From the NCBI RefSeq assembly GCF_029227855.1, contig NZ_CP074356.1: a stretch of 64,000 nt of DNA; one strand, written 5' to 3'. The translations under genes were made by a program, and so were the position numbers. Positions 3,073-64,000 of the stretch are shown here, in pieces (the stretch's first letter is position 1; every line of letters begins with the position of its first letter). Source of the DNA: Escherichia coli (lineage in GTDB: Bacteria > Pseudomonadota > Gammaproteobacteria > Enterobacterales > Enterobacteriaceae). The notes beneath the pieces are model-generated. The model was not told the origin of the DNA, did no database searches, and was given only the letters and a program-made list of their open reading frames with translations.

Positions 3073-3236
3073 ACTTTTTCGTTGCTTTCGGTTTGTTTGA
3101 TATCCCGTGGCAACGGCGGCATATATTACTGATTTCAGACTTGAGCGCAACAAAAATTTCGATGTAGATCACTCAACTGCTTATGATTCGCACGACACGA
3201 CCAGAAATAATGCGACTTCTGGTCGTGTGTTATGCA

Positions 3237-59359: not shown

Positions 59360-59476
59360 TACTGCTCCTGAACGGTTTACAGGAGTAAGTGTAGACGTTG
59401 GGAAATGATATTTGTGAAGTTAATCCTGTTGTAGCAGGGCAAGATTACGAAAGCCCGCTCCCCGCAAGGACTGACG

Positions 59477-60268
59477 TCAGGTAGTTTCTGTCCATGGCTG
59501 CCCTTTCCATTCAAACGTGAAATCAATAAGTTCATCAGGGACATCGCAAACAATGTGAAGACGGATTTCTTCTCTGCCGTGACTCTTTTCACTCATTGCG
59601 TAACTGCCATGCTCTGGATTATTTAATTCTTTCAGCGGAAACTTTTCCTCAAAGGCTTTATTTAGCCGCCCCTGGTTTCCTTTTACAGCGAATAAATAAT
59701 CACCGCCCTGTTTTTGTATCTTCTCTGCGATATCTTTCTGGCAACCCATCGCATCAGTTGTGATAATTTTTCCTTTAATATCCAACATGTTAAGAAGTTC
59801 AGGGATAGCTGTAATTTCATTGGATTTCTCATCCGTCCTGATCTGTCCGATGACCAGACTGTGCATTGTTGAGAACGAACTAATGACATGAATCGCTCCC
59901 CTGCGGCGACTCTAGTCATAAGAGTGCCGGAGCGTTTTTCCATCAATTGCAATGACGCCTTTATCATCTGAAGAATGGCAGTCACGCATCCAGTTAATAA
60001 AGCACTCGTGAAATTTTGCAGGACTGATACAGGATACAACTCTGGCAATGGTATCGTGAACAGGAATACCATTTTCAAAATCACCATATTGCTTCAAAAA
60101 ATCGAGATGTGTTTCCCCAAAATCCTCTATATCTTCCCAGCCTTCTGCACCAGAAATAACGGCACAAATAGTCAACAGTAGAATATCCGACAATTTATGT
60201 TCCACTTTCCAGGCTTGTCTGTAATCGGGGATAATAGAAATATGTTCCATCAATTTTTTAAGTTCCAT
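59477..60268 (-). pseudogene. H-repeat-associated (ISAs1-family) transposase interrupted by an in-frame amber codon and C-terminally truncated
   Basis: N-terminal segment [32 protein letters not shown]...[10 protein letters not shown], then TAG (complement of 59912-59914), then the same frame continues [40 protein letters not shown]...FEWKG and ends early. Both track ORFs 59912-60268 and 59477-59866 are in one frame. Confidence 0.8.
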
Positions 60269-60375
60269 TTTGTTCTCCTTAATTATGTAAGGAGTATTTG
60301 ATCATGTATAAGCAATAAAAAACAGCTTCAGGTAATGAGGAATATCTCAATTTTTAAACATAAAATGCGAATTAT

Positions 60376-60993
60376 TTAGTACAAAAAGTGTACTTCTGAT
60401 GATCTTTCCCTGTCCTTGGCACCATCATTTTTTGACGCTTCAAAAATACTACTACAAGTGAGTTTAGAAAACTCTTTTCCAGATAATTCTCCAGGTTGTA
60501 ATCCTCCGCCGCCAAAAATCCTACTCCCAGGATTTCCATACCTATTTAGAGCATATGAATAGCAATTATTTACGGCAAGATAATACGCATCTGAATTTAG
60601 TTCTCGATTGAATACTGGAGCAGGTTTATCAATTAAGCCCAGCGGATCAATAGAATAGGTTGGATGTATGGAAGCATATACATACTGATTCCACCCGCCT
60701 TCCAGCCCAATCGGATCCTGAGTGATATACCGCCCCTGCAGCGGGTCATAATAGCGGTGGCGGTTGTAATACAGGCCGGACTCCTCATCATACTGCTGCC
60801 CCGGCAGACGGATAAGCTGCTGCAGGTGCTGCGGGTTCTCTTCAGTCAGCAGGTTGTCCCATTCATCATATTCTGCGCACCATTCTGTTGCCCCGTCAGG
60901 GCTGATAAGCGTCAGCGGCAGGCCGCGATAGTCGCAGTGGTAGAGGTGGATTATTCGCAGTGATCTATATGCCAACGTCATCTTATTTTTCAT
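60376..60993 (-). CDS. Orphan Rhs C-terminal fragment (core-end homology plus distinct toxin tip)
   Basis: First about 100 aa ([82 protein letters not shown]) parallel the end of the main Rhs core at 62.0-62.3 kb; the remaining about 100 aa are unrelated to the main Rhs tip. Confidence 0.75.
60700..60970 (-). repeat. Rhs core 3'-end homology block (copy 1; partner at about 62020-62290)
   Basis: Nucleotide-level near-identity, e.g. gtgatataccgcccctgcagcgggtcataatagcggtggcggttgtaatacaggccggactcctcatcatactgctg at both loci. Confidence 0.8.
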
Positions 60994-61045: not shown

Positions 61046-61549
61046 TTAAATTTTCTTATGTAATAGAGGTGAATAATCTTCCCAAAAATCCATACAAGCT
61101 TTACTTGCATAAAAGAATCCAGCGTCTGATTCATAAGACATAAACTGTGCAATAATAGATAGTTGTATATCTGAAAAATTAAAAACAAAATTCAAAAAAT
61201 CATCGTGATCCCGATACTCAGGACATAAATATTGTTGAATAAAATCGGATTCAAAAACCCAAAAATCATTCTTATTAAACAACGAGGCATAAATATACAG
61301 AGGGATGTAATAGCAGAATACTTTCTCAGGGAGGAATGTAATTCCTAACTCTAAAGCATAAGAGTCATCCTTTATTTTAAAATTGTTGGCTATTTCATTC
61401 CATTGTTTCTTTTGGAAAAAATTATATACAATATCCAGTTCCTCCAGCCCTGTAATATCATTTGAAATATGAGGTAATGGCTGGCATGGGAAATGAATCA
61501 TAAGTTCATCATAGACTGCACTCTCGTTAGAGAAAATTATTTTTTTCAT
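61046..61549 (-). CDS. Probable Rhs immunity protein (RhsI) for the main Rhs toxin tip
   Basis: 167 aa AT-rich ORF starting [12 protein letters not shown]; its ATG overlaps the Rhs stop codon (ATGA); location typical of rhsI genes. Confidence 0.65.
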
Positions 61550-64000
61550 TTTATTAAGCCACTGCAATCAGCTGCTGTTTTATATGCTTTATTCTCTTCT
61601 TCCATATGGGCCTTATCTCCACCACCAAAGCACTGATTATTAATCTGCTTTCTGACCGAAGCGCACGCCAAATTTATCTCGTACCGTCTCAATATTTCTT
61701 TTCTCAGCATCTGAGGAGCGCAAGCTCTAGACTGGTTACATAATCTGTTTTTTTCATTTTGTAAGTCACTCAGGTTCTGGGGACTACAGTTACCACCAGG
61801 ATTTACACCTGACTTATGTTCATCTGTTAATTTGTCGGCTTCTGGATTAACTTTACGGCCATATTGATCTCTGCGTTGTTGCCCACTTTGGATAACACCA
61901 CCTGATGAAAACAAACCGCAACTCATCAGTGCTACAACACTAAGAATTAACGGATTTAACCCTTGTGGGTCTATCTCTGAGATCGGATTTAACGGATACT
62001 GATAAAAATTCCATCCCCCCTTCAGTCCAATCGGATCCTGAGTGATATACCGCCCCTTCAGCGGGTCATAATAGCGGTGGCGGTTGTAATACAGGCCGGA
62101 CTCCTCATCATACTGCTGACCCGGCAGGCGGATGAGCTGCTGCAGCTGATGCGGGTTCTCTTCATTCAGCTGGTTACCCCATTCATCGTATTCTGCGTAC
62201 CACGCTGTTGTCCCTTCCGTGCTGACAAGCGCCAGCGGCAGGCCGCGATGGTCGCAGTGGTACAGGTGGATTTTTCGCGCCGGCGTGTACACCGGGTCCA
62301 TCTGGTTTTGCATCTGCTCCACCGTCAGGCCGCACGATGCCAGCCAGCGGCGGCTTTCCTCGCTCACCCGGTCAGTAAGGATTTCACTTTCCAGCCGGTC
62401 GAGCATCTGCACCAGCACCGGCGGGAACACCACTCTGCCACCGTCTTCGCCGCCGGACTGCTGAAGGGCATCCGCCAGGCTGCGGCGCTGCGTTTTCGCC
62501 AGCTCACCGGTGGCGGTTTCAACTCTGATGAGTGGCGTGAAGCTCCCCGGCTGATAAACCGTCTGGATGCGGGTTCTGTCGTTCTGTATTGTGGTCAGCC
62601 GGTCGCCGTCCCAGCCGTACCAGGTCACTTCCGGTTTCCGTGACAGCGACATCCAGCCCGTCAGGTCCCGTTCACGCCGCCATACCCGTTTTGCCACCCT
62701 GCGGCCCAGCGGGTCGTAAAGATAGCGACTTTCGACCAGCGGCTCTGCATATTGTGTCCGCGTGTAGTGCACCAGCCGGTGCCGGCTGTCGTAATGATAC
62801 CGGTGAGTCCGCTCATCATCCGTGCGGATAACCCCTTCCGGGATGAGGTCGGTTTTCTCTGTCAGCCTGCCGTGACGGTCATACCGGTAAAGATAGTGCG
62901 CGTCACGGGCGATACGGTTATCCGGCCACATGCTGAGGGTGCTGTCCGGGTGCAGCTCCGGGTCGGGCAGGCGGTTGCCTGCCGGGTCCGTGGCATACGG
63001 GATGCGGATATCCAGGTTCGCTGCCGTGGTGTGGACGCCGGTCAGCCTGCCGGTGTCGCTGTAGCTGTAACTCCGGGTCTGGCGCGGGCTGCTGATGCGG
63101 ATGAGTTCGCCGTTGTCGTTCCAGGTGTAATCGCGGTCATACTGCAGGCTGTTCAGGTGCTGGCTCTGTAACTGCCCGGCAGGGGTGTAAGCGGTGGTGA
63201 GTTCATAACGGCCGAAGCTGCGCAGCGTTTCCCGGTGCAGGCGGTCGCGGGTGAAATCCACCAGCGGTGTGTCGCCGAGTTTCATGCCTGACAGCCAGCC
63301 GCTGCCGTAGGTCAGCCATTCCACGGCGGGCAGGCTGTCCGGTATACAGCGGTTCGCCAGTCCCTGCGCGTTGTAAGCATGTCTGGTTTCATGCTGCCAG
63401 AGCAGTGCTTCCGTCTGCGGGTGATGCACCGTCTGGCGCTCACCGGTCAGGCGGCCTTTCTCATCATACCCGTAATGCACCGTCACCCGGTGGCCTTCGC
63501 TGAGATAGCTGATTTGTGTCAGCCAGCCGCGTTCGTCGTACCGCCACTGTTCTGCGGTTTCACCATTCACCGTTCGCTGTGTGATGCGGTCTGCTTCGTC
63601 ATAGTGCCAGTGGGTGACCAGCCCCTCATCCTCGCTGCGGATAAGTTTGCCGGTCAGGTCGTGGTGATAACGCTGTGTGCGGCCGTCAAAGCCGGTTTCC
63701 TGTATCAGCCGGTCGAGTACATCGTAACGGAAGGTGGTGTGGCTGCCGTTTTCACTGGTCAGGCGGATGACCCGTCCGGCAGCATCGTATTCCATACTGC
63801 GCGTCAGACCACCCTGCGTGGTACGGATGGCCTTTCCCCACGTATCGTACTGTGTCCCGTTTCTGCTGCCGTCCGGGGCAATGACGGCGGTCAGGTCACC
63901 GGCGGCGTTGTATTCATACCGCGTTTCATGGCCCTGCATGTCTTTCACCGCAATTAACTGTCCACGGCTGTCGTATGCGCGGTACTGACTCAGGCCTTCC
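61546..64000 (-). CDS. rhsC: Rhs protein, C-terminal part (YD-repeat core plus polymorphic toxin tip); 5' end beyond the window
   Basis: YD-repeat-rich translation (…RYDAAGRV…[10 protein letters not shown]…), core-terminating DPxGL motif, then a distinct C-terminal domain of about 140 aa; symbol by synteny with ybgA-phrB only. Confidence 0.8.

Follow-up and report, generated by a model that had tools for sequence, protein, structure and literature searches.

A toxin-tip fragment cut by an H-rpt element at the Escherichia coli rhsC locus, very probably a non-functional relic

Introduction

A toxin without an antidote is an apparent paradox, and it is this paradox that the rhsC region of an Escherichia coli genome (RefSeq assembly GCF_029227855.1, contig NZ_CP074356.1) presents in the window analyzed here, a stretch of 64,000 nucleotides. 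An earlier note, made from the sequence of the window, had described an open reading frame on its minus strand as an orphan Rhs C-terminal toxin module, displaced from its original gene and lacking an immunity gene; it proposed that this gene was deleted when a neighboring H-rpt element arrived, that the immunity function lies elsewhere, or that the tip is not toxic. Dissociated rhs tips have been described as mostly silent and often degenerate, within a model of C-terminal displacement (Jackson et al., 2009, PMC2935791). The question is thus whether the ORF encodes a live toxin at all, and what became of the gene that should accompany it.

Results

Composition of the locus

The window covers the rhsC region in reverse orientation; on the minus strand, the order is rhsC, a 173-residue ORF, the reported ORF, a broken ISAs1-family transposase, ybgA, phr and dtpD, with the reported ORF sitting between rhsC with its 173-residue neighbor and ybgA. 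The features referred to in the following are, all on the minus strand:

61546-64000: 3' part of rhsC, with a frame open to the window edge and a tip different from that of the reported ORF
61046-61567: 173-residue ORF overlapping the rhsC stop codon, with a weak match to Pfam DUF6714 (E=5.8e-5)
60376-60993: reported ORF, in which an Rhs core end is joined to half a toxin domain and a tail encoded by the IS
60634-60993: Rhs core-end fragment, codons 1-120, recognized by its translation and its match to NCBIfam RHS_core
60688-60958: 271-nt direct repeat of the rhsC 3' core (partner 62008-62278, 90% identity, spacing 1320 nt)
60413-60633: N-terminus of a native toxin tip, 74 codons (I121-D194), recognized by its identity to the RhsC tip of strain 1190 and from a family alignment (A3, below)
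60376-60412: tail of the ORF contributed by the IS (last base of the D194 codon, 11 codons and TAA), being the left end of H-rpt/ISEc1
59435-60412: remnant of H-rpt/ISEc1 (ISAs1 family), 978 bp, equivalent to K-12 ybfD
59912-60268 and 59477-59866: the two pieces of the broken ISAs1-family transposase
59360-59434: native sequence upstream of ybgA

A break in the main rhsC gene, for which a GTG start is listed at 63948, was rejected, as its frame continues without a stop to the edge of the window. The current rhsC tip (about 137 residues, rich in cysteine) found no match in a PADLOC scan; the 173-residue ORF is a candidate immunity gene for this tip, not for the orphan. The same gene order is found in the RefSeq genome of JNEC-KY178 (99.9% identical), where PGAP annotates the equivalent of the reported ORF as an incomplete, partial pseudogene.

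The reported ORF is an open frame of 205 codons. Over its residues 1-120 it aligns with the C-terminal 119 positions of the NCBIfam RHS_core model (1143-1261, E=2.9e-56), and TIGR03696 (E=1.3e-22) and Pfam RHS match there as well. The core end closes with the motif PxxxxDPxGL (P111-L120, 60634-60663), which demarcates the start of Rhs tips (PMC3150448), and the GC content, at 51-59% in the core fragment, drops to 31-36% across most of the tip. Two features of an orphan module are thus found, homology of the core end to the upstream rhs gene (as seen in the 271-nt repeat and the RHS_core match) and the motif at the start of the tip (residues 111-120). Two others are missing: the polymorphic toxin domain is incomplete, as the IS replaces the rest of it after 74 of about 148 residues, and no cognate immunity ORF follows directly 3', where H-rpt is located, the 124-residue ORF described below being absent from the window. 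One residue of the core fragment sets the window apart: codon 46 (60856-60858) encodes Asp (EYDEWDNLL), where Gly (EYDEWGNLL/QL) is found in three related orphans (L003, L004, P0002) and in the main rhsC; by this comparison it is a private substitution in a core fragment that appears silent.

Beyond the core end, the segment L120-D194 (75 residues, of which L120 is the last of the motif) is 100% identical to the corresponding first 75 residues of the full-length RhsC tip of strain 1190. The stub retains the invariant cysteine of the family motif NNCYSYA and contains no family residue past position 75. What had been taken for a distinct C-terminal domain of about 100 residues is therefore made up of 74 native residues, 11 residues encoded by the IS, and a stop. 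The ATG is preceded by GGAG; given this start and the unchanged tip segment in the two window-type genomes read at sequence level (below), a translated product could arise from the ORF. A consensus scan for promoters and terminators gave no promoters above shuffled expectation, and no promoter-like site upstream of the ORF.

The H-rpt terminus lies within the ORF

The left terminus of the H-rpt element, CAGGGAAAGATCA, is present as an exact 13-mer at 60400-60412, inside the reported ORF; the right terminus, CAGGGCAAGATTA, is found at 59435-59447 as an inverted copy with two mismatches. ISAs1 ends begin with CAGGG (ISfinder), and terminal inverted repeats with this start are present at both ends of the remnant. 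Both ends align to full-length ISEc1 in blastn, with an internal deletion of about 302 bp between them, and the two ORF pieces of the transposase, separated by an internal stop, match NCBIfam transpos_ISAs1 (NF033564) with E=1e-35 and 2e-39. Four left ends of H-rpt/ISEc1, from the window, GTEN_24, DH1 and ACN001, are alike from CAGGGAAAGATCA inward and unrelated outside; it is these unrelated flanks that place the IS boundary at 60412 and make the last 11 codons and the stop of the ORF IS-derived. In agreement with this boundary, Megablast matches to other ISEc1 copies begin at window positions 60412-60415.

The distance of 107 bp that the earlier note had measured from the stop codon to H-rpt is thus the distance to the transposase start codon; the element itself begins 37 nt inside the ORF. 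The stretch 60269-60375 belongs to the IS, as the conserved leader 5' of its transposase ATG, and harbors no small immunity ORF, a possibility the note had considered and likewise dismissed. No target-site duplication is present, the 8-bp flanks GCCAAGGA and CTACAACA being different; since the flanks are unlike and the ancestral locus has lost 813 bp (see below), the arrangement is not that of a simple insertion.

Two further genomes show H-rpt elements next to Rhs sequences. In GTEN_24 (L002, 2384-4623), an intact ISEc1 at another locus has Rhs fragments on both sides, one abutting its left terminus and another lying past its right end, with a small ORF downstream; from this arrangement, ISEc1 and Rhs tips appear to come together repeatedly. 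In the wolf strain LFB1-1-1R (L001, 533-6453), a VgrG-linked full-length Rhs protein with a different tip is followed by a 130-residue ORF with a hydrophobic N-terminus and then by an H-rpt with a diverged left end, a layout like that of the window locus before decay.

The IS-free allele

A protein word-index search with the tip of the stub found one match that extends beyond the break, a partial Shigella flexneri protein (P0001), which matches through ...NDGAKD and continues for another 73 residues (LDNGSCPSGYHKAQLF...DYHWYRQD...IFLPN). Its contig (L005) represents the same locus without H-rpt, where the toxin end and an overlapping ORF of 124-128 residues are followed by ybgA, phr and dtpD. 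Up to contig nt 119 (window 60413), window and contig are 97.7% identical; the IS terminus is the exact point at which they part, and homology returns at contig nt 933 (window 59413). The 978-bp remnant thus stands in for 813 bp, comprising 73 toxin codons, the whole of the small ORF and most of the ybgA spacer. In the IS-free order, the rhs core and PxxxxDPxGL are followed by a tip of about 148 residues, an overlapping ORF of 124 residues with a putative signal peptide, and ybgA.

The 124-residue ORF is likely the immunity gene of the parent tip. A tblastn search of the whole window with the cognate immunity protein was empty, and neither this protein nor the C-terminal half of the toxin occurs elsewhere in the window; the earlier note's statement that no immunity ORF follows the tip thus holds, H-rpt directly adjoining it. 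A tblastn search for the full tip on plasmids gave no match, and the immunity family comprises only a few close variants in E. coli and Shigella.

Distribution of the junctions in E. coli

The intact tip and the small ORF adjoining ybgA are found in 41 of 5,426 complete E. coli genomes; according to the annotation, the tip is part of a full-length RHS core protein in 39 of the 41 and of a fragment in the other 2. The two of these genomes inspected in detail, strain 1190 and the fragment-bearing E300010, are without H-rpt. The arrangement of the window is present in 242 genomes, with identities of 96.5-99.9%, and the two of them whose sequences were read show no change in the tip segment (60413-60636). 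Among the matches listed, the window-type genomes have a single match place for the toxin segment, which covers only its nt 1-119. The equivalent of the orphan in Br_112_kylling (L004, ~3100-3165) carries near its 5' end a 23-bp tandem duplication, CACTGCGAATAATCCACCTCTAC, which puts the codons after the ATG out of frame.

On the right side of the element, the ybfD remnant meets ybgA in a junction (window 59435-59560) that is far more widespread, occurring in 3,436 of the 5,426 complete genomes (~63%), including K-12 DH1, which is collinear with the window through the site of the internal deletion. It is an old, widely inherited scar. In ACN001 (L009, 6925-7411) and many other genomes, the right terminus of a full-length H-rpt abuts nt 570 of the immunity gene, leaving the 3' 132 nt of that gene and the ybgA spacer in place; this is a further IS junction within the one ancestral module, and it shows a history of more than one step. 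Among the matches listed, no genome has both the junction at toxin nt 119 and that at immunity nt 570, and one genome has two match places.

The family of the parent toxin

A HMMER scan with the native half yielded 14 representatives, whose C-terminal regions align over about 150 residues (alignment A3). Invariant in this alignment are N24, C25, Y26, A29, P48, G49, G53, C61, I64, A67, D71 and G72 before the break, and C81, L90, D103, Y104, H105, W106, R108, G113 and K118 beyond residue 75; the family motif, as seen in the strain 1190 RhsC tip (L007, 5890-6342), reads NNCYSYA...PQPG.SG...LTC...DYHWYRQD..G.WSHK...CG.LC.PN. A full-length A3 profile retrieved 1,548 clusters, many of them Rhs-linked, and among the 120 clusters listed no Pfam domains other than Rhs-related ones or IPT/TIG were found. 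Neither the stub nor the reconstructed full tip nor the 124-residue partner had matches in Pfam, NCBIfam or PADLOC other than to the Rhs core, and the A3 profile gave only a chance-level match to LytA (E=0.21) among PDB sequences.

In a confident AF2 model of the tip (pLDDT 86.9, pTM 0.83), N-terminal helices, with C25 opening the helix 25-30, precede a five-stranded sheet over residues 85-147, in which H105 is located on strand 103-109. Outside the Escherichia and Shigella copies, AFDB50 contains strong structural matches, with E down to 1e-13, to uncharacterised proteins; they come from bacteria, archaea, a viral metagenome, corals, rotifers, algae and molluscs, and the mollusc and coral relatives include proteins named 'insoluble matrix shell protein 1'.

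The ORFs that follow three unrelated homologues (L007, 6327-6701; L011, 3345-3773; L012, 3250-3645) start, as judged by eye, with sequences resembling signal peptides or lipoboxes (MFTKLSIAILLAFSAYVHA/ETS in E. coli, ...LFSIGC in L011, ...PALGMC in L012). This suggests that they may be exported immunity proteins and that the toxin may act in the periplasm; the extra conserved cysteines of the family point the same way. Together with the arrangement of C25 and H105 in the model, we infer that the parent tip would be a papain-like Cys-His hydrolase acting in the periplasm. It is a tentative proposal, more doubtful than not, that this large family, for which neither a Pfam or NCBIfam match nor a functional annotation was found, represents a new kind of Cys-His hydrolase toxin that acts in the periplasm and is paired with an exported immunity protein; the relic, a dead N-terminal half, would then mark the ancestral rhsC tip of E. 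coli. A distant member (L012, 2501-5596) lies in an array after an integrase gene, in which an orphan tip is followed by a 131-residue lipoprotein-like ORF, a protein with a Tlde1 domain and more small ORFs; Tlde1 proteins are a family of T6SS effectors that act in the periplasm.

Discussion

Origin of the relic and alternatives to it

Of the orphan layout that the earlier note had proposed, the displaced core-end and tip fragment at the rhsC locus stands, supported by the repeat, the motif and the drop in GC content; in place of an intact module, however, there is very probably a non-functional pseudogene relic of a former rhsC toxin tip. Since the break has removed H105 and all β-strands, leaving only the cysteine helix, the stub should neither fold nor catalyse. 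Judging from the model, it is almost certainly non-toxic and in no need of immunity; selection would thus not have kept an immunity gene, and its absence requires no special explanation. The role that the note had considered for the H-rpt element is well founded, as the IS remnant replaces the second half of the tip and the immunity gene, and so is its first option, the deletion of the immunity gene upon arrival of the element: the 124-residue gene is present in genomes without H-rpt and absent here, with the addition that the toxin was cut as well. The frame-breaking duplication in one strain and the incomplete-CDS flag given by PGAP are further signs of decay.

The relic would have originated from an ancestral rhsC gene with the parent tip and its 124-residue partner. 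H-rpt would have entered this locus, followed by successive IS-adjacent deletions; alternatively, the replacement could have resulted from recombination between two IS copies. As the junctions have no target-site duplication, one of these two routes, insertion with adjacent deletion or IS-IS recombination, was probably taken. The frame now runs on across the IS terminus for 11 codons before it meets its stop. Before or after the arrival of the IS, a newer tip with its 173-residue partner would have pushed the crippled tip downstream by C-terminal displacement.

The tip and H-rpt could also have reached the locus already joined, by homologous recombination of an imported rhs fragment::H-rpt unit with a resident H-rpt by ybgA, leading to the same end state. 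Three observations are compatible with such an import, namely that the right junction is common to so many genomes, K-12 among them, while the left flanks differ, that ISEc1 termini adjoin further Rhs fragments elsewhere, and that a target-site duplication is absent; the intact module, however, occupies exactly the same position by ybgA in IS-free genomes, from which it follows that an origin in place needs fewer steps, and import is thus rather unlikely, if the most serious of the other readings. Quite improbable is that the truncated product was kept for a new, non-toxic role, be it as a recombination cassette that silences rhsC or as a small protein formed of an Rhs plug and the helical half of the tip. 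The arrangement is indeed carried by 242 genomes, with an unchanged tip segment in the two read at the sequence level, the repeat would permit a 1,320-bp deletion fusing rhsC to the dead tip, and in Salmonella, orphan and main rhs genes have been documented to recombine (PMC3967940); yet clonal descent explains the sharing, given the high identities, the duplication in Br_112_kylling argues against selection on translation, and the consensus scan found no promoter-like site upstream of the ORF.

That the ORF is an intact, potentially active orphan toxin whose immunity gene lies elsewhere in the genome, an option the note had left standing, is hardly credible. It has an open frame, a start codon and the conserved cysteine motif in its favor; against it, the IS terminus cuts the domain at residue 75 of about 148, the invariant histidine and the β-sheet are gone, no immunity homologue occurs within the window, the listed window-type genomes contain one match place limited to nt 1-119, and the immunity family is restricted to its few close variants. 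The same two last findings speak against immunity provided from another place.

Significance

The apparent paradox is thereby resolved: the IS has made a pseudogene, and there is very probably no live toxin for which an antidote would be missing. Decay of this kind is ordinary for rhs loci of E. coli, and the partial status of the feature is already flagged in RefSeq. For scans of polymorphic toxins it advises caution, in that the end of an ORF should be checked for IS origin before an orphan toxin is called. The junction probably records the first entry of the widespread ybfD H-rpt remnant into the rhsC locus, and as such is a datable scar of modest value. The one way in which the relic could still matter is as a recombination partner, as recombination across the two 271-nt repeats would remove the present rhsC tip along with its partner, joining rhsC to the dead tip. 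Only the uncharacterised family of the parent toxin is worth following up, and the locus points to a specific toxin/immunity pair for doing so, the tip of WP_001605137.1 and WP_000494465.1.

Comparison with known systems

By its model, the parent tip would resemble the papain-like (clan CA) peptidoglycan hydrolase effectors NlpC/P60, CHAP, Tae3, Tse1 and TseH, with a cysteine opening a helix near its N-terminus and a histidine on a predicted β-sheet, and its partners, like the periplasmic immunity proteins of the Tai/Tsi type, are predicted to be exported. It differs from papain-like effectors in having no significant sequence or Pfam match, in structural scores that lie in the twilight zone, and in its extra conserved cysteines.

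The rhsC element of K-12 occupies the same locus, between kdp/ybfA and ybgA/phr, and shares with the window the ybfD remnant, its internal deletion and its junction to ybgA. It carries the H-rpt fragments ybfQ/ybfL/ybfD and a different orphan, ybfO (rhsO), whose downstream partner ybfC has been kept; there, ybfD adjoins another H-rpt fragment on its left, whereas in the window its left end meets the truncated tip directly. At the same locus, the RhsC protein of strain 1190 (WP_001605137.1), whose tip is identical over L120-D194, differs from the window in being a full-length Rhs with a complete tip of 148 residues, in having an exported partner of 124 residues (WP_000494465.1), and in the absence of H-rpt.

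With the orphan rhs-CT tips described in the literature (PMC2935791; Poole et al., 2011, PMC3150448), the ORF shares a core-end repeat of the 3' end of the upstream rhs gene, the motif PxxxxDPxGL, an AT-rich, non-homologous tip, and a position downstream of the current tip/immunity pair. In contrast to orphan rhs-CT/rhsI modules, it has a half-domain tip and no rhsI; it thus fits the degenerate class of these papers and not the class of functional cassettes.
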